A stretch of 39,203 bases of DNA from a virus. The stretch lies in IMG/VR virus record IMGVR_UViG_3300032200_000007. The stretch is one strand, 5' to 3'. Each line of letters starts with the position of its first letter. Positions within the stretch are counted from its first letter, which is position 1. Of this stretch, positions 1,661-31,652 are shown piece by piece. Below the pieces are notes generated by a model. That model was not told where the DNA came from, searched no databases, and saw only the letters and a program-made list of their open reading frames with translations. A program made the position numbers and the translations under genes.

Positions 1661-2347
1661 ATGCATCGCGGATATATAAAAATTTGGAGAAAAATTTTAG
1701 ACTGGGGATGGTATAAATCTTCAGACACAAAATCCGTTTTTCTACACCTTCTTTTAAATGCAAATTTCAAAGATTCTGAATATATGGGGCATCGTATCTT
1801 ACGAGGACAGATAGTGATAGGTAGGAATAGTTTAAGTAAAACATTAACCATCTCTCCACGATCGATCCGAACAGCGCTCTGGCGTCTAAAATCGACCAAC
1901 GAAATAGCCATCAAATCGACCAACAGATTTTCAATCATAACACTATGTAATTATGAGGTTTATAATAGCAATAATATTGAAAACGACCAGCAGAACGACC
2001 AGCAGAACGACCAGCAACCGACCAGCAACCGACCAGCAACCGACCAGCAACAGACAACATCTAAGAATGATAAGAATGAAAAAAATAATACATTTGATCA
2101 ATTCTGGATTGCATACCCAAAAAAAGTTGGAAGAGGGGCCGCGTTAAAAGCGTGGAAAAAAATAAAAGTACCAACAGAAATTTTTGAAAAAATAAAAACA
2201 GCACTTGAGTGGCAAATTAAATCTGATCAGTGGACTAGAGACAATGGCCAGTTCATCCCTTACCCAGCAACATATCTAAATCAATGTCGATGGATGGATC
2301 AACCTATTGAAATTCAAACAACGCGAAAGCCACGGATAATTCAATGA
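1661..2347 (+). CDS. Replication initiator / replisome-organizer-like protein
   Basis: The N-terminus is winged-helix-like (GYIKIWRKILDW...NSLSKTLTISPRSIRTALWRL). The C-terminal motif FDQFWIAYPKKVGRGAALKAWKKI...GQFIPYPATYLNQCRWMD is typical of phage replication proteins. The gene sits immediately upstream of the primase-helicase. Confidence 0.65.
   Translation: MHRGYIKIWRKILDWGWYKSSDTKSVFLHLLLNANFKDSEYMGHRILRGQIVIGRNSLSKTLTISPRSIRTALWRLKSTNEIAIKSTNRFSIITLCNYEVYNSNNIENDQQNDQQNDQQPTSNRPATDQQQTTSKNDKNEKNNTFDQFWIAYPKKVGRGAALKAWKKIKVPTEIFEKIKTALEWQIKSDQWTRDNGQFIPYPATYLNQCRWMDQPIEIQTTRKPRIIQ
1982..2049 (+). repeat. Six tandem 11-12-bp repeats (core CGACCAGCA) inside the initiator gene; candidate iterons
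   Basis: Read directly: aacgaccagcag x2, aacgaccagca x1, accgaccagca x3. A tandem taagaatga x2 (2062..2079) and an A-rich tract follow. Confidence 0.9.
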
Positions 2348-4095
2348 TCAATTCAAAAATATTTTCTGATTATTTATCTTACGGCTTGTCTGTAATACCC
2401 TGCAAGGAAAAGCGTCCGACTATTTCAAGCTGGCAAAAATTTCAAACCACCCTGCCGACACCGCAAGAAATTGCAGATTTTTCCGGCCCACAAATAGCCT
2501 GTATTTGCGGAAGAGTTTCCGGCGGACTGGTATGTATTGATTTTGATATAAAAAACGGCGACCGTTATGATCAATGGCTGACATTGATTAATGAAAACGC
2601 TCCTGAATTGCTGTCGAAAATAATTTGTGAAAAAACTCCGTCTGGAGGATATCATATTGTTTTTAAAACCCCCACTGAAATCCGCAATCTGAAACTCGCC
2701 TGCAACACAGAAAATAAATGCATGATTGAAACGCGAGGAGAGGGAGGATATTTTGTTTGTGCCCCTTCTGAAAATTACGAATTGCAGTTCGGAGATTTTT
2801 ACTCAATATCAAAACTTACGAAAGAAGAAACTGAATTTATAATTTCATCAGCCAGATCATTCAACGAATTTATTGTCGAACATTATGAAAAAATTCATGC
2901 TGCAGTACATACCAATAGTAACGGAATAACACCATTTGACGATTATGATTCAAAAAATACTCCTGTTGATATGTTGTTGTCTCATGGATGGTCCATCTGT
3001 TTCAAGCGCGGCGATGCCGTTTACCTAAAACGTCCAGGTAAAGAAGGAAGAGCGATTTCCGCCACATGGAATTCAGTTCCGGGAAGATTTTATTGTTTTT
3101 CAACATCTACTCAATTTGAAAATGACAAATATTATAAAGCAAGCGCAGTCTACACTATTCTTGAACATGGCGGGAATTACAATGCTGCGGCGAAAGCGTT
3201 ATACGATTCAGGGTATGGTGAAAGAAAAGAAAAAAAAGAAGAAAAAGAATACAAAACAATTCTTTTAAGAACCGATGATATTCTAAACAAAATTATCGAC
3301 ATAAAAATAAATGGATACAAAAAAGGAAAAACGACAGGATGGAAAACTCTTGATAAACTATACTCTGTGGCAAAAAGACAATTCACGGTTATCACCGGAG
3401 TGCCTAGTAGCGGAAAAAGTGAATTTATGGATGACCTTGCCGTTCATCTGGCAATAAACGACAATTGGAAATTCGCAGTTTTTTCACCGGAAAACTATCC
3501 GGCGGAAATGCACTTTCATAAACTTATCGAAAAAATTTGCGGCGATGAATTACGAAACTGCAAAGACGAAGATATTGAAACTGCATTTAAATTCATTGAA
3601 AAACATTTTTTTTTCATCGACGCCCTTGAAGAAGATATATCTCTCGAATCAATACTATCGCAAACTCTTGATCTTGTAAACAATCAAAAAATAGACGCGC
3701 TGATAATCGATCCATGGAATGAAGTCGAGTTGAGTAAACCGGACAATATGTCTGAAACTGAATTCATCGGGAAATGCTTACGTAAATCAAGAAAATTCGC
3801 AAGAAAAAACGATATACATCTTTTTATCATAGCCCATCCGACAAAATTACTTAAAAATAAAGACGGTGAATATCCAATACCTGAACTATGGGATGTATCC
3901 GGCTCGGCTCACTGGAGAAATAAAGCCGATAACGGAATATGTGTTCATCGGGATTATGAAAAAAATGAAACTGTCATATATGTACAAAAGATAAAATTCA
4001 AATATTGCGGAAAACAGGGAGAATGTATATTAAAATACGATTTGAAAAGCGGGAGGTATTACGAAGATGGGCAACAGGCAAGCTGGTGGGATTGA
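2344..4095 (+). CDS. Bifunctional Prim-Pol primase / RecA-fold (DnaB/RepA-like) helicase
   Basis: N-terminal Prim-Pol motifs: GLSVIPC..KRP, GGLVCIDFD, SGGYHIVF. C-terminal Walker A is GVPSSGKSEF and Walker B-like is ALIIDPWNE. 583 aa. Confidence 0.85.
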   Translation: MINSKIFSDYLSYGLSVIPCKEKRPTISSWQKFQTTLPTPQEIADFSGPQIACICGRVSGGLVCIDFDIKNGDRYDQWLTLINENAPELLSKIICEKTPSGGYHIVFKTPTEIRNLKLACNTENKCMIETRGEGGYFVCAPSENYELQFGDFYSISKLTKEETEFIISSARSFNEFIVEHYEKIHAAVHTNSNGITPFDDYDSKNTPVDMLLSHGWSICFKRGDAVYLKRPGKEGRAISATWNSVPGRFYCFSTSTQFENDKYYKASAVYTILEHGGNYNAAAKALYDSGYGERKEKKEEKEYKTILLRTDDILNKIIDIKINGYKKGKTTGWKTLDKLYSVAKRQFTVITGVPSSGKSEFMDDLAVHLAINDNWKFAVFSPENYPAEMHFHKLIEKICGDELRNCKDEDIETAFKFIEKHFFFIDALEEDISLESILSQTLDLVNNQKIDALIIDPWNEVELSKPDNMSETEFIGKCLRKSRKFARKNDIHLFIIAHPTKLLKNKDGEYPIPELWDVSGSAHWRNKADNGICVHRDYEKNETVIYVQKIKFKYCGKQGECILKYDLKSGRYYEDGQQASWWD

Positions 4096-11971: not shown

Positions 11972-12121
11972 ATGTTTAAAATTGCAGATACCGGAGAGCG
12001 TGTGGAATCACAACCACGTTGCGGTGGCCCAGAGGCGTTTACATCGATGGCTATTAGAGTTCCTGTTTCAATGGTTGAGGAGTGGCTTTTCAAAGCATGG
12101 CAAGCCAAGAGTGTTGTGTAA
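11972..12121 (+). CDS. Small hypothetical protein (49 aa; alternative ATG 11951)
   Basis: Hand translation: MFKIADTGERVESQPRCGGPEAFTSMAIRVPVSMVEEWLFKAWQAKSVV. The start was chosen by analogy with the other R-element/ORF junctions. Confidence 0.4.
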   Translation: MFKIADTGERVESQPRCGGPEAFTSMAIRVPVSMVEEWLFKAWQAKSVV

Positions 12122-12126
12122 AATTT

Positions 12127-12753
12127 ATGGATACAAGAATTATTCCAGATATCGGTTCTACACATAATGGTAATTTTAAAAATTGTGTTTCAGCAATAAT
12201 AAACGCCAGCGCTTCCGGAGTAAAAGATATAAAATTTCAGCTTCTTGAGAAAAGACACGTCAAAAATGGCAATATACCAATAGATAAAAAATGGTTGCCC
12301 GACCTTGTTAAAATCGGGAAGGAAAACAATATTAATGTTTTTGCTTCTGTCTGGTCTTTAGATTCAATGAAAACATTGAGAGACGCCGGAGCGGATACGG
12401 TAAAATTCGCATACTCAATGATCAATGAATTGTCATTGCAGAGAAAGGCGATGATAATGTTTGAAGAGGTTATAATATCTGGTGACATAATGAATGTTCC
12501 TATAATTCCATGCCTTAAATTATTTTGCGTTCCAATGTATCCGGTATATTTTAAAATATCTTTTGAAGAATTATTTCCAAAATTCGACGGCTTTTCAGAT
12601 CATACCATGGGAATAAGTCAGACGATTGATGCGATAAAATACGGCGCAAAAATCATAGAAAAACACGTGTGTCAAGACAAGCCTTCAAATTGTCCTGATG
12701 CGCGCTTTGCTGTTTCTTGGGACAAAATAAAATATCTTGCCGAAAGGTTCTGA
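12127..12753 (+). CDS. NeuB/PseI/LegI-family nonulosonic-acid synthase-like protein, short form (208 aa, no SAF domain)
   Basis: Motifs IIPDIGSTHNGN, SGVKDIKFQ, AGADTVKF, GFSDHTMGISQTIDAIKYGAKIIEKH and CPDARFAVS follow the NeuB TIM-barrel pattern. ATG 12127 lies within track ORF 12082..12753. Confidence 0.75.
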   Translation: MDTRIIPDIGSTHNGNFKNCVSAIINASASGVKDIKFQLLEKRHVKNGNIPIDKKWLPDLVKIGKENNINVFASVWSLDSMKTLRDAGADTVKFAYSMINELSLQRKAMIMFEEVIISGDIMNVPIIPCLKLFCVPMYPVYFKISFEELFPKFDGFSDHTMGISQTIDAIKYGAKIIEKHVCQDKPSNCPDARFAVSWDKIKYLAERF

Positions 12754-13401
12754 ATGAAAATCTTGATTATCGGGAGCAATGGAAGTACCGGAAAAAGATA
12801 CTCGAAAATTCTTTCTGAAAATGGAAATGAAATAATACCATACGACATAGAAGAATTTAAAAAAGACCTTGGATTAGAAATTCCATCTTGCGATAAAGCA
12901 ATTATAGCGTGTCCAACAAAAATTCATTATCATTTGTACTTTAGAACTAAAACATGGAATTATAATTTGAAACCTAATGATATTTTAATAGAAAAACCAG
13001 TTTCTGATAAAATAGAAAATATTACTGGAACATATGTAATAAAACCGATTGAATGCAAAATGGTTTGTAACTGGGCATTCGTATTTCCCGACGAAATATT
13101 GTACCCTGGGACAAGCACAGTATATTACAACTATTTAAACACGGGGAAAGAGGGCTACTGGTTCGACACGTGCCAGCTTCATATACTGTCAAACGGTAGG
13201 GGACAAATAACAAACGATAGTCCTCAATTCAATGCAAAGATCAACGATAGAACCATTACCAAGAAAATGATCGAAAAATCATATGAACGCATGATTTGTT
13301 CATGGTTGAACAACCCTGATGAAATATGGAATGTACAGGATTTGATACCAGAGCTATCTTACATTATAAGAAAGCATGATATCGAAAATGGACAAATCTA
13401 A
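12754..13401 (+). CDS. Rossmann-fold oxidoreductase-like protein (Gfo/Idh/MocA-like N-terminus)
   Basis: MKILIIGSNGSTGKRY plus an ILIEKP motif. It is embedded in the sugar cassette. Confidence 0.5.
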   Translation: MKILIIGSNGSTGKRYSKILSENGNEIIPYDIEEFKKDLGLEIPSCDKAIIACPTKIHYHLYFRTKTWNYNLKPNDILIEKPVSDKIENITGTYVIKPIECKMVCNWAFVFPDEILYPGTSTVYYNYLNTGKEGYWFDTCQLHILSNGRGQITNDSPQFNAKINDRTITKKMIEKSYERMICSWLNNPDEIWNVQDLIPELSYIIRKHDIENGQI

Positions 13402-13963
13402 ATTTGTAATAGGTATTCAGGCGAGAAGCGGAAGTACGAGATTCCCGTATAAAGTATTAAAATCGCTCGACGGATCACCGATGTGGCGAACAGTTTTGTA
13501 CAATGCGGAAAAAACAAAAATTGAAACATATATATTGATACCTCATAATGACGAAATGTTAAAAGATAGTGTTTACGAATGTGGGTGTTATGATAAACGA
13601 ATACTCGGAAATGAAAAAAAACCTCTTTTAAGATTTATAAAATTATTAAACGAACATCCGAAAGAATACATTATACGAATTACCGCAGATTGCCCGCTCA
13701 TAGGCAAGGAAATAATTCTTGACGTTGCAAATTTTGCAGAAAAGAAAAAAGCCGTTTTCGTATATAATGAACTAGATGGGATGGACGTACAGGTAGCGCA
13801 CGTATCTCTGTTCGAAAAAGAGATTTATCTTGACAATGAACACGTGTTCAATATGGAAAAAATAAAAGAACATGGACTTTATACAAAATGGGAAATGCAT
13901 CTTTCTGTAGACACGAAAGAGCAATACGATCATATTAAGTTTTTGATGGAGGATGAATCATGA
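13388..13963 (+). CDS. Acylneuraminate/SpsF-type cytidylyltransferase-like protein
   Basis: IQARSGSTRFPYKVLKSLDGSPM and IIRITADCPLIG match the CTP_transf_3 pattern. An alternative ATG is at 13376. Confidence 0.7.
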   Translation: MDKSKFVIGIQARSGSTRFPYKVLKSLDGSPMWRTVLYNAEKTKIETYILIPHNDEMLKDSVYECGCYDKRILGNEKKPLLRFIKLLNEHPKEYIIRITADCPLIGKEIILDVANFAEKKKAVFVYNELDGMDVQVAHVSLFEKEIYLDNEHVFNMEKIKEHGLYTKWEMHLSVDTKEQYDHIKFLMEDES

Positions 13964-15078
13964 TTTTCGGCGGCGCGTCAACGTTTTCTAAAATGCATTG
14001 CAATTATCCCGACGGGTTTCCTGAATATTTCGAGTGCTGTGAAGGACAATATTTAATTGACAATTCAAGAAACAGATATTTCGATACTGTTTCCGCCCTT
14101 GGCGCTCAACTTATCGATTACAGGAACGGCGGCATGATGTCGTTACCATGTTCTACGGAAAAAGAACTCGCTGAAATATTGAAACAGAAAATGCCGTTTA
14201 TTGAAATGGTAAGATACGGAAATAACGGGGCCGACACAAGCGAGGGGGCTTTGCGATACGCCAGGGCGCACACCGGAAAGAAATGGATTTTAAGCTATGG
14301 TTATCATTCGTGCCAATCTGCATTTACCAATCAGACACCGCCGGCGCTCGGATGCGTTGAAGGATTTATACGGCAATTTGAAACGCTTGATCTACTTCTT
14401 TCCTGGATGAATGTAAACGAAATAAACGATATTGCCGGAATAATCGTTGAGCCGGTCATTCTCGATCTAAACGTTAAACGAGAACTTGAAACATTGCGAA
14501 AAATAACAGCGCAAAAAGGAATAGTTCTTATTTTTGATGAAATAATAACAGGGTTCAGGGTCCCGGAGTTTTGTATTTCAAATTGGTTCAAAATATTTCC
14601 CGATATAATACTTTTAGGAAAGGGTATCGGAGGCGGGTATCCGCTATCAATTATCGGCGGAAGAAAAGAAATAATGAACAAGCCGGTTTTTATTTCCTAT
14701 ACCTTCGCCGGATTTCCGGAAGCGATAGACAGGGCGCTTTTCGTATGTACAACTTCAAACGATGATATTTTAAAGCTGTGGGAAACATCGGGGAAGTTTA
14801 TTCATGAATTTAACGAATTCTCTTTTGGCGTAAAGCTAAAAGGATACAATACCCGCTGTATATGGGATGGACCGCGAGAACTTGTTTATACCTTCTGGCA
14901 GGAAATGCTGAAAAAAAAAGTGTTTCTCGGGCCGGTGTTTTTTCCGAAACTTACCTGGACGGAAGAAATATTCAAAAGCCTTTTGATAACGTTCAGCGAA
15001 TGCATTCACGATATAAAATCAAATAACATTACGCTTTCAGGCCATATGCCGGAACCGATTTTCAAGAGGAATACATGA
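13960..15078 (+). CDS. Class-III PLP aminotransferase (glutamate-1-semialdehyde aminomutase-like)
   Basis: FGGASTFSK near the N-terminus, IIVEPV, DEIITGFR, and LGKGIGGGYPLS carrying the candidate PLP lysine. Confidence 0.75.
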   Translation: MIFGGASTFSKMHCNYPDGFPEYFECCEGQYLIDNSRNRYFDTVSALGAQLIDYRNGGMMSLPCSTEKELAEILKQKMPFIEMVRYGNNGADTSEGALRYARAHTGKKWILSYGYHSCQSAFTNQTPPALGCVEGFIRQFETLDLLLSWMNVNEINDIAGIIVEPVILDLNVKRELETLRKITAQKGIVLIFDEIITGFRVPEFCISNWFKIFPDIILLGKGIGGGYPLSIIGGRKEIMNKPVFISYTFAGFPEAIDRALFVCTTSNDDILKLWETSGKFIHEFNEFSFGVKLKGYNTRCIWDGPRELVYTFWQEMLKKKVFLGPVFFPKLTWTEEIFKSLLITFSECIHDIKSNNITLSGHMPEPIFKRNT

Positions 15079-15500
15079 AACTAAAAATTAATCTTGTAGA
15101 AGTAGACGCTTCAAACAATTCCGATCTTTTGCTTTTATGGCGCTGCCTTGCGGAACGTCCGAAACGTGCGAACATCAGCCATGATGGAAAGTTGCCTTTA
15201 TGGGAAAACCATGTTGAATTCGTCAAATCAAAACCGTACCGTGAATGGTACATAATAAAAGTCTTGGTCGAAGGAACGTGGATGAGTTGCGGGAACTTCT
15301 ACATTACTCACCGGAACGAGGTAGGAATTTTTATCCTGAAGCAATACAAGCGTTGCGGAATTGCGTTTTCAGTTCTGAAAAAAATTCCTAATAAGGGAGA
15401 ATTTTTTGCCAACATCGCTCCTCGCAACTACCCGTCGCAGCGGCTTTTCAAAAAATGCGGATTTGTTCACGTTCAAAACACGTACAGGAGGGGCAAGTGA
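15075..15500 (+). CDS. GNAT-family N-acetyltransferase
   Basis: VGIFILKQYKRCGIAFSVLKKI (motif A-like) and NYPSQRLFKKCGF. Confidence 0.65.
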   Translation: MKLKINLVEVDASNNSDLLLLWRCLAERPKRANISHDGKLPLWENHVEFVKSKPYREWYIIKVLVEGTWMSCGNFYITHRNEVGIFILKQYKRCGIAFSVLKKIPNKGEFFANIAPRNYPSQRLFKKCGFVHVQNTYRRGK

Positions 15501-16420
15501 ACTACTTCATCACCGGCGGTACCGGCACAATCGGCCGCGAAATCGTAAGTCTTCTTTTAGGCGATACGAAAATGTGCGCTGAAAAGATTGTCGTATATTC
15601 CCGCGACGAACAGAAGCACGCCGAAATGATGAATCTGTTTCCGGAAGGCGGTGAATCCGGATTGCGTTACATTGTCGGCGATATATGCGATTACAGCCGA
15701 CTGCTCTACGCCATGGATAAAGCTGGTGTAGTTATCCACACCGCGGCAATGAAGCATATAGACAAGTGCGAATATAACCCCACCGAAAGCGTAAGGATAA
15801 ACGTCATCGGATCAATGAACGTTGCAAAAGCCTGCAGGGAAACCGGGGTTCAACAGGCGGTAATTATTTCGACCGACAAGGCATGTAATCCGATAAGTGC
15901 ATACGGGGCGCAAAAATATGCGGCTGAACGGCTATGGATCGGGATGAACAATCTTTCCTCAAAAACGATGTTTAACGTCGTTCGTTACGGGAACGTGCTC
16001 GGTTCAAGAGGATCGTTCATCTACCACTGGCAAAATCTTCTTAAAGAAAAAAAACCGATTCAGATAACTGACGAAAATATGACGCGCTTTTTCTGGACGG
16101 TTCATGAGGCCGGAAAATTCATACTGTCAAGAATCACAGACGGATTTCAGAATAGGGATCGCGGCCTTGTTTATATTCCAAAAATGGGAAAATGCAAAAT
16201 CATCGATATGGCAAAATCGTTGTCTGAAAATATTGAAATCGTCGGGATGCGCTGCCCGGAGAAAATACATGAAGAGATGATTTCAATTACAGAAGGAGCA
16301 AGCGCTTACGATTGCGGAGACCATTATATAATTTACCCTTTGATGCATGACTGGTGCAGAAGTATTATTCCACGCGGTTGTAAATGTCCTGAAGGATTCC
16401 GACTTACCTCTGAAGTATAG
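15497..16420 (+). CDS. PseB/FlaA1/CapD-family UDP-sugar 4,6-dehydratase
   Basis: GTG 15497 follows AGGAGG (15486..15491) and forms a GTGA overlap with the GNAT stop. Motifs: FITGGTGTIG, YSRDEQKHAEM, VIHTAAMKHIDKCEYNP, STDKACNPISAYGAQKYAAE. Confidence 0.8.
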   Translation: MNYFITGGTGTIGREIVSLLLGDTKMCAEKIVVYSRDEQKHAEMMNLFPEGGESGLRYIVGDICDYSRLLYAMDKAGVVIHTAAMKHIDKCEYNPTESVRINVIGSMNVAKACRETGVQQAVIISTDKACNPISAYGAQKYAAERLWIGMNNLSSKTMFNVVRYGNVLGSRGSFIYHWQNLLKEKKPIQITDENMTRFFWTVHEAGKFILSRITDGFQNRDRGLVYIPKMGKCKIIDMAKSLSENIEIVGMRCPEKIHEEMISITEGASAYDCGDHYIIYPLMHDWCRSIIPRGCKCPEGFRLTSEV

Positions 16421-16475: not shown

Positions 16476-16505
16476 CAGCCGGGCGGCAACCCGGCTGGTT
16501 TTTTT
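16476..16505 (+). terminator. Rho-independent terminator at the convergence point of the two arms
   Basis: cagccggg-cggcaa-cccggctg followed by gttttttt. The reverse orientation is followed by tttgtt, so it may be weakly bidirectional. Confidence 0.75.
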
Positions 16506-17089
16506 CATTGTAAAGTATAAATCACTGTTTGGTTGCAATTACTTCCCTTAGATGAATCAGCGCCCCATACTTGAGTTGTTCCTTCGGAAAAAATCAATTG
16601 AGAAGTATATGTTGATGTAAAATAGGCTACAGCATTAGTTGTGACCGTTCCGCTCGAATACCACCTTGTCGGGTTTATTATTGCATTCAATATAATTCCC
16701 CCTGATGCTCCAGAGGCGACAGTTGGTTGAATTGCAGATGGAAGTCCGTTTAATGACATACACGGAATACCATCAGAATTAGCAAGGAATTCAGGAACAA
16801 ACAAAGTTACAGTATTGTAAACTTTTTCATATTTTACCGTTATTGATGTATCTCCCGAACTGGTTCCTGAAACAGTTGCCGTAAACGATCCGGTCAAATA
16901 TCCTGTATCGGCTATGATATGGCTTGCCAAGGTAACTCCAGAAACCTTCAGGCTCCCGCACCCAAGGTCTGAACTGCTTCCGCTGTTTATCGATCCGATA
17001 ATATCAGTGAAATTCTGGTTCACCTCGTCGGCGTCGATATAATTACCGGCACCGTTTACAAAAGTATAAGTTACTGATGGATCAGCCAT
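16505..17089 (-). CDS. Tail fibre-like protein (194 aa)
   Basis: The N-terminus TYTFVNGAGNYIDADEVNQNFTDI resembles phage fibre N-termini. The rest is Ser/Thr/Gly-rich. It is the last gene in a T7-like structural order. Confidence 0.55.
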   Translation of the reverse strand: MADPSVTYTFVNGAGNYIDADEVNQNFTDIIGSINSGSSSDLGCGSLKVSGVTLASHIIADTGYLTGSFTATVSGTSSGDTSITVKYEKVYNTVTLFVPEFLANSDGIPCMSLNGLPSAIQPTVASGASGGIILNAIINPTRWYSSGTVTTNAVAYFTSTYTSQLIFSEGTTQVWGADSSKGSNCNQTVIYTLQ

Positions 17090-18571: not shown

Positions 18572-19629
18572 TGCACCATCTCCCAGTTCTCCGGTTTTGC
18601 TGGATCGCCGCCACGGAATCGGTATCCGCCCTCAACGGTTCCCGGCTGCGGGCCTGATGTCTTTTGGGCTGGAACTGATGCGGATGGCTTTGTTTGGCCT
18701 TGGCCTGGTGCTTCTGGCGTAGCGCTCTGCATGATCTCTTTTATCCGGTTGAGTTCTTTCCGGAAATCCTTTTCACCGAGTCCCATGTCGAGCATCGATA
18801 CTGCGCGCTCCAGCATTTTTGATTCGTAATCTGATATCTGCCCCTGTCCCTTCATCATCTGACGTTGATCAAGGGCAAGACGGCCTTTCAGATTCTCAAC
18901 TTTTTTCAGGAATGAAAATTCAGGACTGCCCGGTATTTTTTGAGCTACCCTTTTCGGGTTCAACCCGGTGCTGAATCCGGGATCGTTTTCAATTTCAGTA
19001 ATAATGTCAACGATTTCCTGCTTATTCGTTGCCGTTTTTTCTCTTTTTTCACCGGTTCGTTGTGCTTCAATATCTTTTTTCGTACCAGCGTTGAGAAGTG
19101 CAATGAATTCCATCAATTCATTCCGTTCGTTTGCAATCTCTTCACGCGATTTGATATTCTGGCCGGCAACCACCTCACGGGAAGAAAGCGTTTCAAGAAG
19201 CCGTTCAAGCCCCGCCTCTGTCGATTGCGTTGCCTTTGCTCCGGCGCCCTTCTTCATTGCCCGCTGCACAGCAGACAGCCCTGGCTCCGCCTCAACCGCT
19301 GTCTCCCACTCACCGGCAAGGCGCTCTCCTCGCTCACGCTCCCCACGGGCACCAGCAAGCTGCTCGCCGTAGAGTTCAGTCTGTGATTTTTTCAGCGCCC
19401 GCTCAATTGCCTCGTTCTGCCGGGCGTTTTCTTCGGCAAGAAACTGCCGCCGCCGGTCCTCCTGCTGCTGGAAAACCTGTTCCGCGCCCATGGCGGTCGA
19501 TCCAGGGCTTTTCCCTTGTGTGGCAATTGATTCTATCACCCCGAGGGCCGGAAGCACATACCGCCTGAATGCCTCGAATGTTCGGCGGTCCTTCAACTCT
19601 ACATCAGGACCATACAAATTTTCAGCCAT
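18568..19629 (-). CDS. Internal virion protein, coiled-coil-rich (353 aa)
   Basis: ORF track; charged E/R/K/Q-rich sequence; ATGA coupling. Confidence 0.4.
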   Translation of the reverse strand: MAENLYGPDVELKDRRTFEAFRRYVLPALGVIESIATQGKSPGSTAMGAEQVFQQQEDRRRQFLAEENARQNEAIERALKKSQTELYGEQLAGARGERERGERLAGEWETAVEAEPGLSAVQRAMKKGAGAKATQSTEAGLERLLETLSSREVVAGQNIKSREEIANERNELMEFIALLNAGTKKDIEAQRTGEKREKTATNKQEIVDIITEIENDPGFSTGLNPKRVAQKIPGSPEFSFLKKVENLKGRLALDQRQMMKGQGQISDYESKMLERAVSMLDMGLGEKDFRKELNRIKEIMQSATPEAPGQGQTKPSASVPAQKTSGPQPGTVEGGYRFRGGDPAKPENWEMVQ

Positions 19630-25508: not shown

Positions 25509-28500
25509 CTAAAATCTATAACTTATGTCAAAAGGTTTTATTCCTCCGCTTCCCGCTGCCAGATCAGCGCTTCCTTCAGTAAACAATTGCAACTCACCAG
25601 CCAGCGGCTGAATCAACCCAATAACGTTTGTACTATTATTATATATCTGCACTGGAATTAACGCTTTATCACCTGTATACCGTGCGGATTTTATCGATGG
25701 ACATTTTACATACGCTCCGCCACCGCTCAACGTCCCAAGAATCTGATTGCCAGTTATTCTTATAGTGCTATCGGAATATTTAACGAGAAAATAAGCGATC
25801 GACCGCGCCCTGTATGTTGCTCCGTCATAAAGCGAACAATACGCACTGAAAGACGAATCCGAAAGCACCATCAATCTTTTACAGACAAGCGTGTCTTTCC
25901 TGATTTCAACGGAAGACGTATCGGTAGAAACTCCTGTTGCATCCCTTGCGTCAGCAGTATCGGTATAGCTGAATCTCAACACCCCGGTTACATTTCTCGC
26001 TGCGTATACTGTCCGCGATCCGGAATACAAGTCGAATACCAATCTTGAATAGGTATCATCATCAGGACGTAATTGAAAATCATCTCCTGAAAATTTTATA
26101 TTCCATGCCCCGGTAGGGCATGTTAAATATTTTTTTGCTGTCAACCCGAAATCGGGATTATAATAGAAAAACCCGTAATCCGTAAATGGCGTATCGGCTT
26201 TCATTAAATCAGTAAGCGTGTCGCCTGATGTTATCGGGATATTTCCATCCGTAACGGTTCCTTGTATCGGAGTCGGAAGATTATATTCTGACCACATTTT
26301 CTTACAAATTACAATAGTTGATTTTGTGGTATCTGTAGGACAAATCGTATCAACAACCGCAAGTATTCGATTTCTTGCCGTTGATTCAGACGTGGAAAGG
26401 ATATAGTTATATGTTTGAAAATCATCACTTTGAGTGTGCCAAAAATAAACTTTTCCGCGACATTTAAACATGTAAACAGTATCAACTATTCCGTTTGTCC
26501 ATCCGCCAGGATTATAAAACATCCCATCGTTGCTATATATATATCCCTGTATTGCCGCCGCTATCGGAAAATCTGACCAGTAACTATTTCCATGTATTTG
26601 AAGTTCAAACATTGTGTTTGACGTGGTATCAATACTTGTTTTAATTAATATTCCATTTGCATAATGATAAACAGGAACATTAAAATATGTTTTCGCAAAG
26701 CAAGCTCCGCTGTCAGAACTTATATTTTCACGAATATCAAAATAATCTCCGGTATCGGTTACAGAGCTACTCTTCAGTGTAGAATCGGTATCAACCATCG
26801 GCAGGTTGCCGATATTAAGATTCCAGAGTTTCAGCTTTCCGTTTTTCAGATGATAATTACCGGTTCCTACCGTTCTGCTATTAAATATCATGTTGCTGCC
26901 ATCGTAATAAATCCCGGCGTCCTGCCCTTCTCCGAAAACAATTTTACTCGTATCGCTGTCTAAATTCAACCCGCCTTCAAACTGGCTTTGCGCGGCATGT
27001 TCCGAATAAATACACCAATCCGTCGTAACCGTCGCAGAACCGACCGGTGCATTTATCACAATATCCCAATTCTTAGCTATCGTTCCTGTCCCTTGACGAT
27101 ATGGATTCATTTCAATTCCTGCGACTCCGCCAGAAACATTTCCAACTATCGATCCGTTTGTTCCATAATTGAACCTTAACCCGTATAGTGCACCGACAGT
27201 TCCGGAAGTTAAAAGATATGCACGCATCCAAAACCCATGATACGATCCGGCATCAACAAGGTCGGCGCTGGCAAGATTGGCATAGCAGTATGCATTCAAA
27301 GCATATCCGCCGTAATTACCGTTTGCGGTTACATCTGCATCAGTATAAAAATATCCGTTGTATCTATTGGCCAGATTAGTCGGATTATAATATCCGTAAA
27401 ATTTTATGTTTGATACCGGAGCAACTCCGTATGACAAATTGGAATACGAAGAATTGTATCTCAATTCGCTGTTGCTAAGCGCATGAGAAGAACTGAAATA
27501 AGGAACATAATTAGCCGTTCCGTTTATCCGCGCATTGCATGTGTCGTCAACGTCTTTTGCATGATCGGCGATTACGGCGCTATCGGCCTTGCCATGCAGA
27601 GGAAGCCTGTTGTTCAGCGTATCCCTGATAATATCCAATGAATCCGATACTGCAGCCGTCGATATTGCGCCTATTCCAGTGCGAAAAGAAGATGCGGAAA
27701 TTCCTCCTACAAGTCCATCGCCGCGTATTATTGGAACCGTATCGGTCATTGATATCATAGAGATGTCTTTAATAATAGTGGAATCTTCTATTTTTAACCC
27801 TCCATGCTTTATCCAAACAGGATACCATTTGTCACGGTATGGATAAGAATAGAAATCTTTAAAAAGCGAATCGTTTAATGTCATTTGCCCGGTACTGTCA
27901 ATTATCGCAATATGGTCAATAAATGTTTCAGGAGAAGGGTCCGAAACAGAACGAATGACAAATTTATTTTTACCTGTATATCCACCTGCCTGCATCTTTA
28001 AGCTTGCAATGGCAAAATGACCTTGATACCAACCGTAAAATGTTTGAAGATTTTCAAGCATCAATCTCGCGTATGAATTCGCGGAACTAGAATTATTCAA
28101 TATCAAAAATAATGGATTTGAAACATTGGAAGTTCCATAAGTCAACAATGGACCATGCCCGTAATAAGTATTTCCATCGTAATGCAATAACGAATCGTCG
28201 AGCAACGACGATGATTTTGCAACAGCAAAATAATTTGTTGCTACTCCATGAAGAAGACTTAAACCTATTGTTGCCGTATCCGATCTTTGCGATTTCAGTG
28301 AAGCCCTTACGCTGTCAGGAGTGTTAAGTGCTGTATCAGCGGTATCAGAATAAACGGCATGAGTTACCGAGTCGGGAATTATCGTATCGACAGGGCAGGC
28401 TTTCATCAGGTTGCTGGCGCTGTCGAACACTGCGAAATAATGAGGAGAAGTGGCAAGCGGCTTCGTTATTATATATAAAGAATCATTTAACTGAAGCCGT

Positions 28501-28586
28501 CCGTTGTTTCCCTGTATGCTGTCGGTTTCAAGAAATTCAGCGCTGCATACCGATACAATGAAAAGAAAAACGGCAATTCGTCGCAT
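25509..28586 (-). CDS. Large beta-rich protein (1,025 aa) with a Sec-type signal peptide; fibre/adhesin-like
   Basis: Met11 of the track ORF; its ATG overlaps the upstream TGA, and AGGGGGG lies upstream. N-terminus MRRIAVFLFIVSVCSA/EF. N/S/T/G/Y-rich. C-terminus ...KPFDISYRF. Confidence 0.6.
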   Translation of the reverse strand: MRRIAVFLFIVSVCSAEFLETDSIQGNNGRLQLNDSLYIITKPLATSPHYFAVFDSASNLMKACPVDTIIPDSVTHAVYSDTADTALNTPDSVRASLKSQRSDTATIGLSLLHGVATNYFAVAKSSSLLDDSLLHYDGNTYYGHGPLLTYGTSNVSNPLFLILNNSSSANSYARLMLENLQTFYGWYQGHFAIASLKMQAGGYTGKNKFVIRSVSDPSPETFIDHIAIIDSTGQMTLNDSLFKDFYSYPYRDKWYPVWIKHGGLKIEDSTIIKDISMISMTDTVPIIRGDGLVGGISASSFRTGIGAISTAAVSDSLDIIRDTLNNRLPLHGKADSAVIADHAKDVDDTCNARINGTANYVPYFSSSHALSNSELRYNSSYSNLSYGVAPVSNIKFYGYYNPTNLANRYNGYFYTDADVTANGNYGGYALNAYCYANLASADLVDAGSYHGFWMRAYLLTSGTVGALYGLRFNYGTNGSIVGNVSGGVAGIEMNPYRQGTGTIAKNWDIVINAPVGSATVTTDWCIYSEHAAQSQFEGGLNLDSDTSKIVFGEGQDAGIYYDGSNMIFNSRTVGTGNYHLKNGKLKLWNLNIGNLPMVDTDSTLKSSSVTDTGDYFDIRENISSDSGACFAKTYFNVPVYHYANGILIKTSIDTTSNTMFELQIHGNSYWSDFPIAAAIQGYIYSNDGMFYNPGGWTNGIVDTVYMFKCRGKVYFWHTQSDDFQTYNYILSTSESTARNRILAVVDTICPTDTTKSTIVICKKMWSEYNLPTPIQGTVTDGNIPITSGDTLTDLMKADTPFTDYGFFYYNPDFGLTAKKYLTCPTGAWNIKFSGDDFQLRPDDDTYSRLVFDLYSGSRTVYAARNVTGVLRFSYTDTADARDATGVSTDTSSVEIRKDTLVCKRLMVLSDSSFSAYCSLYDGATYRARSIAYFLVKYSDSTIRITGNQILGTLSGGGAYVKCPSIKSARYTGDKALIPVQIYNNSTNVIGLIQPLAGELQLFTEGSADLAAGSGGIKPFDISYRF

Positions 28587-28789
28587 CAGTACCCCCCTTT
28601 GATGCACGTATGCCATGCAGAACCTTCATATACCTGAACCTTGAGGCGGCTGTCCTCCCATATCAGCCGTATCTTCGGATCGGTTCCGAATTCGATGTAA
28701 TTCTCACCGAGAACCACATCAATCGTGCGTAGATACCGGTTATCGTTGTATTTTAAGTGTGACTGTAAAGTCTCTTGCCTGAAAGGCAT
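28586..28789 (-). CDS. Hypothetical protein (67 aa)
   Basis: ORF track; GGAAGGAG RBS. Confidence 0.5.
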   Translation of the reverse strand: MPFRQETLQSHLKYNDNRYLRTIDVVLGENYIEFGTDPKIRLIWEDSRLKVQVYEGSAWHTCIKGGY

Positions 28790-28828
28790 TGGATACTCCT
28801 TCCCGCCGAAACGGGGTGAGGATTATCC

Positions 28829-29068
28829 CTACACCCCGAAAACAACAACCTGATACGACGCCCCCGACAATGCCGTGCATGCCGCAATACTGCTCGCGCT
28901 GTGCGTAAGCCTTGCCATTTGTGAACTCGTTCCGACAACCTGGATAACCCGGTTAAGTCCGGTACCGGCAGCGTCGCCGGAATTGCTGTCGTCCATCGCC
29001 AGCGTTCCGGCCATTACACGCCATGATCCCATTACGGTTTCATCTGATTTTGTAAACGTATTCGACAT
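28829..29068 (-). CDS. Small Ser/Ala/Gly-rich protein (79 aa)
   Basis: ORF track. Confidence 0.5.
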   Translation of the reverse strand: MSNTFTKSDETVMGSWRVMAGTLAMDDSNSGDAAGTGLNRVIQVVGTSSQMARLTHSASSIAACTALSGASYQVVVFGV

Positions 29069-29078
29069 TAAAACCTCC

Positions 29079-30128
29079 CTAAAAAAGAAGATGCATTTGC
29101 CCGCTTACCGATTTTTTCAGCATTTCAGGCAATAAATTACTCATGTTGAACATATGCAATACGGTTTTGAGATCGATTTGAATTATCTGCCGTATGTTCC
29201 CCTCATGGTATGCCCCCATGATACCGCCTTCCGTGGCGTTTATCCAGAGATGCGCATTGTTCCCGCTGCCACCGCATGCCATGTAATCGAACCAGTTTTT
29301 GAAACCGAAATATGATCCCCATGTCCATACCCGGTTTCCATAAATGTCGATCCATGGCATGACTCCGGAAAATTTCGCATCATACTGGCTATCCCATGCA
29401 TGAAATTTATGATCGTATGAAAAGCATAAATCCATGCCGATGAAAACAGGGATCGAGCAACCGAGTACCGCCCTGGCAAAATACATCGCCGCGCCCATAA
29501 CGTTCCCGCCGACGTTGAATCCCGGAGTTTTTGATATGTCAACATATTTCGAGATTTCAACGGCAAGAGCAAGTGATGCATACGGCGTCGTATACCACAA
29601 TACCGGCCCTTTCCATTTCGCTATAAAGCCGGGGTGGGTCCCGTGATAAGCGATAAGCGTCCTGTCTTTTGTTCGGTCCCAATACCAGTCTGGATCGTGA
29701 GACCCGCCCTCCGACATTTCACGTATCGTTATATCTCCAGCGTCAAGAACAATGTAATAATCGTCAGACGTCATCAGGTTTCGGTCTTCGCAAAACGGGA
29801 AATTGTGCACTCCGGCGACTATTTTCAAATCCTTTCTTCCGATGGATTTGTCTCCGTCGCCGACAAGCTCTTTCCAGTTCTTTTTCAACGACGGCCCGGC
29901 CCCCATGAGTATCACCGGTTTTCCATAACACGCCATATGAGCGTTAAACGCGCTGTTTTTGACGAAGTCATAGTTCTTCGAATTGGCAGCGGTTTGATCG
30001 ACCCATTGTTTTTCCCATGACTTTATGGTAAGCTCGTCGCAGTTGGTTGCCGCCTTCCACGCCGATTCTTTACCGTTTGGAATGCCGTCTATATAAGGCG
30101 ACAATCTCAAAACCATTTCAATCTGCAT
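29079..30128 (-). CDS. Maf / DUF115 (MAF_flag10, MptE-like) family protein; putative nonulosonic-acid glycosyltransferase
   Basis: Met6 of the track ORF, behind GGAGGAG. Motifs PVILMGAGPSLKKNW, YYIVLDAGD and GGNVMGAAMYFARAVLGCSIPVFIGMDLCFS follow the DUF115 pattern (GxGPSL ... D ... GGsv..A..lA..lG...i.l.G.Dl). Confidence 0.6.
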   Translation of the reverse strand: MQIEMVLRLSPYIDGIPNGKESAWKAATNCDELTIKSWEKQWVDQTAANSKNYDFVKNSAFNAHMACYGKPVILMGAGPSLKKNWKELVGDGDKSIGRKDLKIVAGVHNFPFCEDRNLMTSDDYYIVLDAGDITIREMSEGGSHDPDWYWDRTKDRTLIAYHGTHPGFIAKWKGPVLWYTTPYASLALAVEISKYVDISKTPGFNVGGNVMGAAMYFARAVLGCSIPVFIGMDLCFSYDHKFHAWDSQYDAKFSGVMPWIDIYGNRVWTWGSYFGFKNWFDYMACGGSGNNAHLWINATEGGIMGAYHEGNIRQIIQIDLKTVLHMFNMSNLLPEMLKKSVSGQMHLLF

Positions 30129-30143
30129 ATGTTTCTCCTCCAT

Positions 30144-30240: not shown

Positions 30241-30726
30241 TTACGCGCAATTGACGCGCACGGTAAACGTGCCATATGAAGACGCTGCTGTCGCGGTAAG
30301 AGCAACCCCGACAGGCTGGTACAAATTGCCGGTCGTCGCAGAGCCGGAACGGAAATAACCGTCCGTGTCAAGCGCGACATAATGACCTGCCGTAGTACCG
30401 GAGCTCGTTTCACACCCCGGAACGACACCGTTGACGACGACCCAGCCATAATACCCGGTAGGAATCGTGGCATGGTAGACCACACCGCCGATATCATAAT
30501 CCCCTGCAGTTGAGCTTACCGTCAGAGAATACCCGGAGCTTGCCGATGCATTCGCTCCGATATACACCATGGCTTTTCCAGGGCATGCCTGTGAAGAAGA
30601 TTTGTTGTATATATACCGGTATTTATTACCGTTCTGCCAGCGTTCCGTCCCGAGCTGTATGCTGTTAGTCGCGGTAACGCTGCTTACCGATTCTTCGAAT
30701 AAAGTTTGAAGACCGTAGTTAGACAT
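30241..30726 (-). CDS. Ser/Thr-rich capsid decoration/cement-like protein (161 aa)
   Basis: It follows the major capsid gene directly. 38 of 161 residues are Ser/Thr by hand count. The C-terminal half GYYGWVVVNGVVPG...PVGVALTATAA...FTVRVN resembles DUF2190-type decoration proteins. Confidence 0.5.
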   Translation of the reverse strand: MSNYGLQTLFEESVSSVTATNSIQLGTERWQNGNKYRYIYNKSSSQACPGKAMVYIGANASASSGYSLTVSSTAGDYDIGGVVYHATIPTGYYGWVVVNGVVPGCETSSGTTAGHYVALDTDGYFRSGSATTGNLYQPVGVALTATAASSYGTFTVRVNCA

Positions 30727-30740
30727 TTTTCACCTCCTTC

Positions 30741-31652
30741 TTAAGTCAAGGCGGTCATCATGCCGTGCATCCTGTTATTGGAGCTTGTCATGACGCCCGT
30801 CCAGAAAATTTGTGCGACTTTGACGTTCTGATTCGTCGGCTGACGGAACCCGCTGAACCTGAAATTCTCATCCTTGTGGGCGAGCAGGCCAAGATAGGTT
30901 TCGTTCAGGCAGTACAGATACCCGCTGGTGCAATGCGAATCGACGATTACCGGGATACCGTTGAAAATCAGGTTTTTGAAACCGGCTTTCAGCGTTTCCT
31001 CGTCGGCGAAACGCTGCTGCGGCTGAATTGCCGCCCAGAGATCGTCAAACATATCCTGCGTTGTGACGATAACCGTCGGGCCGTCCGCATCGATCGTGCA
31101 ATCGCCCAGAAGCGCCTGCAATGCAACCGGCGTCAGCGCTGTAGTCGAGGAATCCACGTTCGCCTGCCACCAAGAATAAGTAGCCTTCGCAATCGTTCCG
31201 TGTGTTCCGGTCGCCGCGCAAATAAGCTTGATCCCCTGAATCCCGGTAGTGCCGTCGCCGAAAATAGAAGTGGCGAGAGTATCCTTCAGGGTCTTTTCCG
31301 CCAATTGCACCTTTGCCTTGAGATGGTTGATAATGGCGTTTTTCCCGCTGTTTTTCAGTTCGTCGATTCTGGTGATATTGATCGATGCATACGCCTCTTT
31401 CCAATCCCATGACGCTTCAGTTATCTGCGTCGTGTCATTGGTATTGAGCGTCTGCGAACCGCTGTACCATCCAGCGGCCCCCGTCTGTGCATACGCCAGC
31501 GGTTGCGACACGCTGGTGCCTCCGTCGATGGTGTCATACCATCCACGCTTTTTCGACCTCTGAAGCAGAATATTCGAATCGAAAATGTTGTCCACAAGTT
31601 TCGGAATCAGATACTTCTGCGTCAAGGAGGATATTTCTCCTGTAAGAGCCAT
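30741..31652 (-). CDS. Major capsid protein (HK97-fold type)
   Basis: 303 aa, downstream of the scaffold-like gene. The sequence pattern (GG..V.QPL...W.EAYASI.I....L..SG.NAII...) is typical of podovirus capsid proteins. Confidence 0.8.
   Translation of the reverse strand: MALTGEISSLTQKYLIPKLVDNIFDSNILLQRSKKRGWYDTIDGGTSVSQPLAYAQTGAAGWYSGSQTLNTNDTTQITEASWDWKEAYASINITRIDELKNSGKNAIINHLKAKVQLAEKTLKDTLATSIFGDGTTGIQGIKLICAATGTHGTIAKATYSWWQANVDSSTTALTPVALQALLGDCTIDADGPTVIVTTQDMFDDLWAAIQPQQRFADEETLKAGFKNLIFNGIPVIVDSHCTSGYLYCLNETYLGLLAHKDENFRFSGFRQPTNQNVKVAQIFWTGVMTSSNNRMHGMMTALT

Follow-up and report, generated by a model that had tools for sequence, protein, structure and literature searches.

The window, the whole 39,203-nucleotide stretch of DNA analysed here, is IMG/VR virus record IMGVR_UViG_3300032200_000007 and comprises the entire JGI contig Ga0337964_166833. 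An exact 141-bp direct repeat is present at both contig ends (1-141 and 39063-39203), indicating that the window is a complete phage genome, circular or terminally redundant, of ~39,062 bp. It is the genome of a podophage. The + strand arm encodes a DnaD-like loader, a primase-helicase, and an exonuclease. The - strand arm encodes the small and large terminases (the latter TerL), the portal, the major capsid protein (MCP), an SU10-type adaptor, and ejection-like and fibre-like proteins. At the convergence of the two arms, at 12127-16420, there is a cassette of six genes whose products resemble the enzymes that make activated pseudaminic acid (Pse), and a seventh gene, related to the Maf transferases, is located beside the capsid gene. 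Nonulosonic acids (sialic, pseudaminic, and legionaminic) are known mainly as cell-surface decorations. The seven genes and two neighbours of the seventh are listed below.

12127..12753, + strand: mini-NeuB, 208 aa, a phosphoenolpyruvate (PEP)-condensing TIM barrel without the SAF domain; PF03102, E 6.5e-20
12754..13401, + strand: short Gfo/Idh/MocA-type NAD(P) oxidoreductase (ORF2), 215 aa; assigned from homologues, fold, and motifs
13388..13963, + strand: SpsF-type cytidylyltransferase; PF02348 (CTP_transf_3), E 6.8e-16
13960..15078, + strand: class-III (HemL-like) pyridoxal phosphate (PLP) aminotransferase, 372 aa; Aminotran_3 PF00202, E 6.5e-21
15075..15500, + strand: small GNAT-type N-acetyltransferase, 141 aa; tentatively assigned
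15497..16420, + strand: PseB-like UDP-GlcNAc 4,6-dehydratase with a GTG start; Polysacc_synt_2 PF02719, E 3.6e-73
29079..30143, - strand: short Maf-type putative CMP-nonulosonate:protein O-glycosyltransferase, 354 aa; PF01973 (Maf_flag10)
30241..30726, - strand: conserved Ser/Thr-rich 161-aa protein between the MCP and Maf-like genes; 24% Ser+Thr
30741..31652, - strand: MCP; NCBIfam capsid_maj_Podo, E 2.2e-73; phrog_9953 major head protein, E 2.7e-53

An initial annotation, based on the letters and the open reading frames (ORFs), had described 12127-16420 as six translationally coupled genes for a Pse- or legionaminic acid-type sugar nucleotide. All six ORFs are present at the positions above, and every motif quoted for them is found in the translations. 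The tight coupling is borne out by the junction sequences. The NeuB/ORF2 junction is TGAATG, ORF2 and the cytidylyltransferase overlap, the cytidylyltransferase/aminotransferase and aminotransferase/GNAT junctions are ATGA, and the GNAT/PseB junction is GTGA. The GTG start of the dehydratase at 15497 is preceded by AGGAGG. Profile hidden Markov model (HMM) searches placed the NeuB-like and cytidylyltransferase-like ORFs in PF03102 and PF02348, not in unrelated families. The assignments of the dehydratase, the class-III aminotransferase, and the oxidoreductase also hold, and that of the GNAT rests on sub-threshold matches. As a nonulosonate cassette of Pse type, the block is accepted at the family level; its phage context and a seventh partner had been overlooked.

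The mini-NeuB stops before the SAF domain would begin, as had been noted, and both the alignment and the structure model agree with this. In the alignment with full-length NeuB, the SAF domain and ~70 residues of loops are lost. The family contains >100 clusters of 200-230 aa, all without the SAF domain, and the ATG start at 12127 is supported by the homologue alignment. The invariant residues (K36, Q38, K93, Y138, P139, S157, H159, E178, H180, and D191) correspond to the KFQ, YP, GFSDH, EKH, and PD motifs, which are common to full-length NeuB+SAF proteins. The structure model has a pLDDT of 97.7. Its best fold matches are Neisseria meningitidis NeuB, the SAF-less Leptospira protein 6ncs (TMq 0.85), SpsE, and PseI, and DAHP and KDO8P synthases rank below these NeuB-type folds. 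The score against the PseI model TIGR03586 is 63 bits (cutoff 340). By its motifs and the model, the mini-NeuB is a NeuB-fold synthase with an intact active site.

ORF2 itself has no Pfam match; its homologues match PF01408, and the GxxGxxG and EKP motifs are present in ORF2. A sequence search against PDB gave nothing significant. The structure model (pLDDT 88.7) is nearest to the WlbA/WbpB UDP-GlcNAcA 3-dehydrogenases 3oa2 and 3oa0 (E 7e-6). Gfo/Idh/MocA 3-dehydrogenases of the WlbA/WbpB group act in tandem with an aminotransferase. ORF2 is located directly 5' of the cytidylyltransferase in all phage loci analysed in detail that have the three genes adjacent, and one locus, L168, shows the inverted order. 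The order oxidoreductase-cytidylyltransferase-aminotransferase, seen in the window at 12754-15078, is shared with L029, L031, L037, and L038 (L numbers denote individual loci).

The cytidylyltransferase shows the Leptospira cytidylyltransferase 6oew as its best PDB match, followed by KdsB, and conserves the motifs IQARS-S-R-P-K, R-T-DCP, DG-D-E, and REH. The longest ORF starts from 13376 and the JGI gene call (191 aa) from 13388. With an E-value of only 0.0036 against the PseF model TIGR03584, the enzyme is SpsF/KdsB-like. SpsF-type enzymes have been proposed as replacements of NeuA/PseF in Vibrio clusters. The aminotransferase matches a HemL-type NCBIfam model (E 1.7e-38) and glutamate-1-semialdehyde (GSA) aminomutases (E 3.9e-28), and its PLP lysine K221 (in LGKGIGGG) and D193 are invariant across the phage clade. 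In tblastn, it scores up to 151 bits against aminotransferases behind SpsF-type cytidylyltransferases in cells and 95-111 bits against true hemL.

The GNAT ORF matches four GNAT Pfam models, all below threshold (E 4.5e-4 to 6e-3), and a PHROG acetyltransferase family (E 1.4e-4). It has no match in PDB or in NCBIfam, including PseH. Its homologues in other phage loci match GNAT models more strongly. The dehydratase keeps the STDK...Y-x3-K catalytic motif. Its best PDB match is Helicobacter pylori FlaA1/PseB 2gn4 (E 2e-63, 217 bits; PglF, 96 bits), and it matches the PseB model TIGR03589 with E 5.5e-84 and 281.9 bits, under the equivalog cutoff of 407.75. All the phage enzymes are shorter than their cellular counterparts among the canonical Pse enzymes, and none attains the NCBIfam equivalog cutoffs.

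The cassette resembles the CMP-Pse pathway PseB-PseC-PseH-PseG-PseI-PseF of Campylobacter and Helicobacter in that it has a FlaA1-like dehydratase, a GNAT in the role of PseH, a NeuB-fold synthase with the motifs, and a CTP_transf_3 enzyme; there are six enzymes for six steps. It differs in that it has neither a DegT-type PseC nor a GT-B PseG, and a class-III aminotransferase is present instead. The synthase is SAF-less, the cytidylyltransferase is of the SpsF type and not PseF, and there is an extra Gfo/Idh/MocA enzyme. The absence of a PseG/LegG-type hydrolase, noted for the cassette in the initial annotation, extends to the whole 39-kb genome. PseG (GT-B, Glyco_tran_28_C) has no homologue in the window or in 15 related phage loci, and no such Pfam domain was detected on the scanned ORFs. 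Likewise, tblastn revealed no DegT/PseC homologue in the 39-kb window or in those 15 loci. PseC and PseG are missing, yet six enzymes are present for the six canonical steps, which suggests that non-orthologous enzymes have taken over, namely the class-III aminotransferase and possibly also the oxidoreductase. Lower-ranked fold matches to GH109 or DgpA raised the idea that ORF2 replaces PseG in an NAD-dependent manner. This is only speculation because the oxidoreductase slot in cellular loci coexists with PseG.

The seventh gene lies in the late - arm, beyond the coordinates of the cassette. The Maf-like protein matches PF01973 with E 2e-13 and 50.9 bits (cutoff 34.6) over profile positions 6-170 of 171. 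The Maf flagellin nonulosonate transferases have PF01973 (Maf_flag10/DUF115) as their catalytic core, a modified GT-A fold with a relationship to the GT42 sialyltransferases. In the phage protein, PF01973 is the sole domain; neither PF20157 (Maf_flag10_N) nor a length of ~600 aa was found. An exhaustive search gave 260 representative relatives, among which the nearest are short and the distant ones are 600-640 aa and match via their central region. PF01973 is present in 40 of 40 relatives scanned, and PF20157 in 11 of 40, long ones only. As a single sequence, the Maf-like protein has nothing significant in PDB. The family profile shows Magnetospirillum magneticum Maf 5mu5 as the best match (E 7e-19), and the archaeal MptE kinase matches with E 8.7e-12. 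In the phage protein, D134 (invariant) and D238 (≥90% conserved) align with the acidic residues 324 and 415 of 5mu5, and the GxGPS motif is conserved in the family. The essential Maf residues are named Asp324 and Glu415 in a preprint. Chain A of 5mu5 has Glu at 324 (LLENG) and Asp at 415 (FGVDLG), so the identities appear to be swapped in the text of the preprint, or the numbering differs; both residues are acidic either way. Like 5mu5, therefore, the phage protein has the PF01973 core above the cutoff, GxGPS, both acidic positions, and a nonulosonate pathway in the same genome. Unlike canonical Maf, it is 354 aa and not ~600-666 aa, it has no Maf_flag10_N and no C-terminal domain, and it is phage-encoded and fixed beside a capsid gene with no flagellin gene nearby or elsewhere in the phage. 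No relative was found in deposited phage genomes or in PHROG families.

The position beside the capsid gene is conserved. The short Maf is present on at least 181 IMG/VR contigs, of which the best 80 were analysed with 10-kb flanks per locus. A capsid gene occurs in the same locus in 76 of these 80 loci. The Maf-like gene is downstream of the MCP gene on the same strand in 77/77 loci, with a median gap of 540 nt. This gap is filled by a ~160-aa homologue of the 161-aa protein in 75/77 loci, with a median Ser+Thr content of 20%, compared with 11.8% for background ORFs. The 161-aa protein has no functional family match. We infer that it is a candidate decoration protein and a candidate glycan acceptor.

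The cassette and the Maf-like gene tend to occur together. Cassette genes were seen within the covered flanks in 12 of 14 Maf-bearing contigs of ≥30 kb. NeuB and Maf are both present in 11 of 13 aminotransferase contigs that are ≥28 kb and ≥70% covered, a subset that is biased because such coverage mostly needs a match in both scans. A first subset, of contigs ≥90% covered, was biased by construction, and the anchored tests were used instead. Among aminotransferase-anchored loci, Maf is present in all three that extend beyond the MCP gene, and three without Maf end at the capsid gene. In L138, L143, and L185, the cassette, TerL, portal, MCP, and Maf are on one strand within ~13 kb. No counter-example to the linkage was found within the 10-kb flanks sampled. 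The Maf-type transferase is thus regarded as the seventh partner of the cassette, and its location beside the capsid gene changes what the cassette is for.

The cassette itself is widespread in viruses. The aminotransferase is present on at least 193 IMG/VR contigs, and an HMM scan of the best 80 aminotransferase-anchored loci with 10-kb flanks detected the cytidylyltransferase in 76, PseB in 67, GNAT in 66, Gfo/Idh/MocA in 62, NeuB in 32, DegT in 1, and PseG in none. Almost all of the 120 sequences nearest to the aminotransferase come from uncultivated sources, and many of them lie on contigs of 33-42 kb. Phage lineages with as little as 38-43% identity in NeuB also carry the six families (L028, L029, and L031). 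The gene order differs between those lineages, and cassette genes are interleaved with phage genes. In some loci with a five-gene layout, NeuB is only seemingly missing; it is located elsewhere, directly upstream of TerL in the late operon, which ends with MCP and Maf. The arrangement with NeuB immediately 5' of the large terminase gene was observed in L216, L218, L221, L223, L231, L244, and L256 (for example, 3300014059_000039). The stop-to-stop NeuB ORFs in this group are 323-395 aa, and some may exceed the 208-aa mini-NeuB.

Some viral loci deviate from the common pattern. In L029 (JGI 3300072388, 12053-13699), the aminotransferase appears as two HMM-matching ORFs, 12053-12376 and 12827-13699, with a called gene of 270 aa, and the gene may be interrupted or frameshifted. 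L198 (IMG/VR 3300026088_000014, 77 kb) is the sole viral contig of the 80 with DegT, which adjoins PseB. It has a full-length NeuB beside Gfo/Idh/MocA and aminotransferase genes, like cellular loci, and may have been misclassified or come from a host genome.

In deposited phage genomes, the DNA-level search gave no match, and the protein search with the mini-NeuB found none. The aminotransferase matched only ordinary hemL genes there, in records resembling bacterial contamination. The ORF2 family has no relative in 185,579 species-representative genomes, indicating that there is no prophage copy in them.

It is moderately probable that the seven genes constitute a phage system for making a Pse-family sugar in CMP-activated form and attaching it to a protein, which would probably be one of the virion. 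The PseB-like dehydratase would convert UDP-GlcNAc to a 4-keto-6-deoxy sugar, on which the aminotransferase and the GNAT would put an acetamido group. The mini-NeuB would join the freed hexose with PEP, and the SpsF-type enzyme would attach CMP. The Gfo/Idh/MocA enzyme and the class-III aminotransferase may form an oxidise-then-transaminate pair, which would either stand in for the PseC and PseG steps or add an amino group to the nine-carbon sugar. The six donor enzymes would be read with the replication genes from the + arm, and the short Maf, encoded in the late - arm, would transfer the sugar to Ser/Thr residues, most likely those of a virion protein. Three observations point to a virion acceptor: Maf has a fixed place in the head-gene cluster, its conserved neighbour is Ser/Thr-rich, and NeuB or the entire cassette belongs to the late unit in some lineages. 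The exact sugar, the source of the PseC/PseG-like steps, and the acceptor are all proposed from gene content and position.

A more specific proposal is plausible but tentative. Uncultivated podophages of 33-42 kb would coat their own virions with a Pse-family nonulosonate, using a phage-made six-enzyme donor pathway and a core-only Maf, with the class-III aminotransferase and the Gfo/Idh/MocA enzyme replacing PseC and PseG. The likely acceptor would be the capsid or the Ser/Thr-rich capsid-associated protein, and the sugar may bear an extra amino group.

Several observations weigh against such a system. PseC- and PseG-type genes were not found in the genome, so that a self-sufficient pathway requires two unproven non-orthologous substitutions, or host enzymes. 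The class-III aminotransferase in cells coexists with PseC and PseG. Scores stay under the PseB, PseI, and PseF equivalog cutoffs, and those of the GNAT are below threshold. In the Maf papers cited, the named substrates are flagellins, and the phage Maf is without the N-terminal domain and most of the canonical Maf length. Co-occurrence is under-sampled with 10-kb flanks, the distance between the cassette and Maf being 12.7 kb in this genome. The sugar and the glycoprotein are predictions from the genes.

The cellular counterparts bear on the chemistry. The class-III aminotransferase had been pointed out as a departure from the textbook routes, which use the DegT/PseC type. The class is correct, but the enzyme is not an oddity, as it recurs with an oxidoreductase and an SpsF-type cytidylyltransferase in cellular Pse loci. 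From a scan of the cytidylyltransferase family, 80 SpsF-type loci of diverse Bacteria and some Archaea were collected. A class-III aminotransferase is directly 3' of the cytidylyltransferase in 34 of them, and 29 of these 34 have an oxidoreductase directly 5', which is an aldo-keto reductase (AKR) in 22 and a Gfo/Idh/MocA enzyme in 7. The flanks of the 34 loci contain DegT (27), PseG-like (22), and NeuB (29) genes. Two examples illustrate the arrangement.

Aquimarina, L091: PseB, DegT, GNAT, AKR, cytidylyltransferase, class-III aminotransferase, 336-aa protein of unknown family, SDR, metallophosphoesterase, ATP-grasp, NeuB+SAF
Syntrophales, L062: PseB, DegT, Gfo/Idh/MocA, 688-aa cytidylyltransferase-aminotransferase fusion, PseG-like, formyltransferase, NeuB+SAF

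These loci share with the phages the same three families, in the same gene order where the oxidoreductase is Gfo/Idh/MocA. They additionally have DegT/PseC, PseG, full-length NeuB with SAF, tailoring genes, and full-length proteins. The cellular oxidoreductase is more commonly AKR than Gfo/Idh/MocA, the type found in the phage. In the Syntrophales metagenome-assembled genome JBHGBI010000001.1, a single 688-aa ORF (L062, 7992-10058) joins the SpsF-type cytidylyltransferase to the class-III aminotransferase, with a full-length Gfo/Idh/MocA gene directly upstream and a PseG-like gene downstream. Such a fusion indicates that the two enzymes work together (a Rosetta-stone link). In the Legionella Sg6 O-antigen locus, a GNAT, PseG, a GSA-aminomutase-like gene, and a cytidylyltransferase are listed as neighbours; an aryl-alcohol-dehydrogenase-like (AKR) oxidoreductase is five genes off, not adjacent. 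No functional assignment for the class-III aminotransferase of these loci was found in the literature searched.

The occurrence of the trio alongside DegT/PseC and PseG in cells indicates that it is an add-on to a complete Pse pathway and argues against a simple replacement of PseC by the class-III aminotransferase. The cellular oxidoreductase/class-III aminotransferase pair probably adds a further amino group, and it is suggested that the phage pair could do the same, with the host supplying the missing steps. It is possible, though somewhat doubtful, that the phage enzymes only derivatise a host-made sugar. The trio would turn it into an extra-aminated, N-acetylated CMP-nonulosonate, for example of the 8-amino type, and PseB and NeuB would just raise the flux. 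This alternative concerns the chemistry and is compatible with either target of the transfer. It is favoured by the add-on character of the cellular trio and by the nearest folds of ORF2, those of the aminotransferase partners WlbA/WbpB. Such a sugar exists: 8-amino-3,5,7,8,9-pentadeoxynonulosonic acid is present in the O-antigen of Tenacibaculum maritimum. Fusions of an SpsF-type cytidylyltransferase to AKR act on Pse in Vibrio Pse clusters and in the prophage protein EpaA. A trio-only phage version is also known. L038 (NCBI GCA_040384045.1, JAWVHH010002001.1) is a temperate relative with an integrase, ERF, and DUF3799, in which only the Gfo/Idh/MocA, cytidylyltransferase, and class-III aminotransferase genes are present within the 21 kb examined, and it may represent a minimal version of the module dependent on host-made sugar. 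However, with a host that already provides the complete pathway, it would be unparsimonious for most phages to keep PseB, GNAT, and NeuB while retaining PseC in 1/80 loci and PseG in 0/80, and the six enzymes correspond one-to-one to the six canonical steps. The function of the trio is itself a prediction from the genes.

The target of the transfer has one serious rival. The nonulosonate, made or modified by the phage, could be put on flagellin, pilin, S-layer, lipopolysaccharide (LPS), or capsule of the host via the phage Maf or host transferases. The resulting receptor change would lead to superinfection exclusion, prevent re-adsorption to debris, or cause lysogenic conversion. There is a precedent, as the prophage enzymes EpaA/EpaB turn Pse into 8-epi-Pse in the capsule of Acinetobacter baumannii. 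The flagellin acceptors in the Maf papers cited also agree with a host target, and the missing PseC and PseG fit a host that already has a Pse pathway. Integrases occur in some relatives (L038; 5/80 viral loci). No integrase was found among the scanned ORFs of this genome, nor any recognisable lysogeny gene. The cassette is located at the end of its arm by the tail genes, followed by a terminator, which is a typical moron position. The terminator-like element is as follows:

16476..16497, no strand assigned: bidirectional terminator-like hairpin; stem GC-rich and 8-9 pairs long, with a T-run behind it on the + strand

It lies between the cassette and the convergent tail genes, evidence that is only positional because terminator-like sites are no commoner than in shuffles of the region. 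Against modification of the host surface, the Maf-like gene is in the late structural operon after the capsid gene in all 77 loci, and this operon would be silent in a lysogen. Several lineages have NeuB, or all of the cassette, within the late or packaging transcription unit, and the phage Maf is without the Maf_flag10_N domain. Modification of the host surface is therefore considered unlikely, and a virion protein is the preferred acceptor of the seven-gene system.

The initial annotation had interpreted the AT-richness of the block as a sign of horizontal acquisition. Its hand counts are exact (19/60 G+C at 12781..12840 and 41/60 at 19261..19320), but the conclusion does not follow. The GC content of the cassette is 39.1%, compared with 45.9% for the genome, and climbs from 33% in ORF2 to 45% in PseB. 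Equally AT-rich genes are found elsewhere in the phage, such as the primase-helicase (36.7%) and the DnaD-like gene (37.4%), indicating a GC mosaic. The cassette proteins are 52-71% identical to their counterparts in sister phages, and the backbone genes are in the same range. This similarity indicates that the cassette is ancestral or old in the phage lineage and not a recent import. Low GC as a sign of recent horizontal acquisition is not supported, and recent transfer was rejected.

A broader interpretation along these lines is a horizontally acquired, self-contained nonulosonate cassette of a cellular genome, which would make an unusual sugar for glycosylation of the flagellin or spore-coat type. 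The family assignments and a GC content under the genome mean agree with it. The completeness of the phage genome, the low GC of its replication genes, the co-divergence of the cassette with the backbone, and the absence of the ORF2 family from the species-representative genomes searched make it very improbable. It is refuted for the cellular context and the recent acquisition, and its biochemical part survives within the seven-gene explanation.

Another alternative is hypermodification of DNA, in which the activated sugar would be placed on phage DNA against restriction. The cassette is co-oriented with the replication genes at the end of their arm, and virus-encoded glycosyltransferases that hypermodify DNA with glycans are reported (Pyle et al. 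2024). Among the scanned ORFs, none matched a hydroxymethylase or DNA glycosyltransferase family. The only transferase found is of the Maf type, which acts on flagellin proteins in the Maf papers cited, and its gene is linked to that of the capsid. As the scanned ORFs offered no supporting gene, this alternative was set aside as extremely improbable.

Other features of the genome were also analysed. Promoter-like sites in the cassette region are as frequent as in shuffles (15 observed and 14.9 expected), and scans of the window for tRNAs and Rfam families gave no match. The protein directly convergent with the cassette (16505-17089, - strand, 194 aa) has 27% Ser+Thr and no family match. About 60 of its residues are conserved in the distant L029, L033, L034, L037, and L038 (36-60% identity). 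The protein appears to be a distal fibre or a receptor-binding protein whose anchor is conserved. After the Maf-like gene, an unusually long gap of 462 bp (28617-29078) without a called gene precedes the gene for a 1035-aa protein (25509-28616, - strand). This protein has a hydrophobic N-terminus, RRIAVFLFIVSVCSA, and 19% Ser+Thr, and searches of Pfam, PHROGs, and NCBIfam gave no match for it. A tail spike or fibre function is likely, and the protein is a further possible glycan acceptor.

The host signals are weak and conflict. The Prim-Pol/DnaB primase-helicase (2344-4095, + strand) has its nearest cultured-phage matches among phages of Flavobacteriia, at ~28% identity; by record, the matches are Flavobacterium (172), Cellulophaga (26), and Tenacibaculum (2). 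The capsid protein is nearest to capsids of Bradyrhizobium, Myxococcus Mx8/Mx9, and Stenotrophomonas phages, pointing to Proteobacteria and Myxococcus.

According to the literature, glycosylation has rarely been identified on structural proteins of phages. For the mycobacteriophages Che8 and Rita, phage glycosyltransferases are reported to glycosylate capsid and tail proteins (Freeman et al. 2023, cited in PMC11256854). As far as that citing text goes, these systems consist of glycosyltransferases only, with no mention of donor-biosynthesis genes, a nonulosonate, or a Maf-type enzyme. EpaA/EpaB of Acinetobacter baumannii prophages are also phage-borne nonulosonate enzymes, and EpaA combines a CTP_transf_3 domain with an oxidoreductase domain. 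They differ in being two genes on temperate prophages that alter a host-made sugar for the host capsule, and they include no synthase, dehydratase, aminotransferase, or transferase, unlike the phage cassette. Among cellular proteins, Leptospira 6ncs (290 aa, too short for SAF) is one of the nearest relatives of the mini-NeuB in sequence and structure, and 6oew is the nearest to the cytidylyltransferase. These proteins, and SpsE/SpsF of Bacillus subtilis, are from cellular LPS or spore-coat loci, unlike the phage genes. In the literature searched, no phage was reported to have a nonulosonate pathway together with a Maf-type transferase, and one apparent match, for XacN1, was a false positive. 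Each part of the system belongs to a known family. What is new is that these parts are combined, that the enzymes are miniaturised, that PseC and PseG are systematically missing, and that a phage Maf is fixed beside the capsid gene; none of these features was found in the literature or the deposited phage genomes searched.

If the seven-gene system operates as proposed, this would be the first phage known with both donor biosynthesis and transfer of a nonulosonate onto its own particle. Phage particles would have a sialic-acid-like coat made by phage enzymes, with consequences for virion stability and adhesion, for how immune systems or grazers recognise the particles, and for phage-host recognition. 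The system would provide a minimal enzyme set for glyco-engineering, with a 208-aa synthase, a 191-aa cytidylyltransferase, and a 354-aa transferase. The role of the oxidoreductase/SpsF-type cytidylyltransferase/class-III aminotransferase sub-module, which is present in many bacterial and some archaeal Pse loci, would become testable, and the Maf-type enzymes would gain a non-flagellin acceptor.

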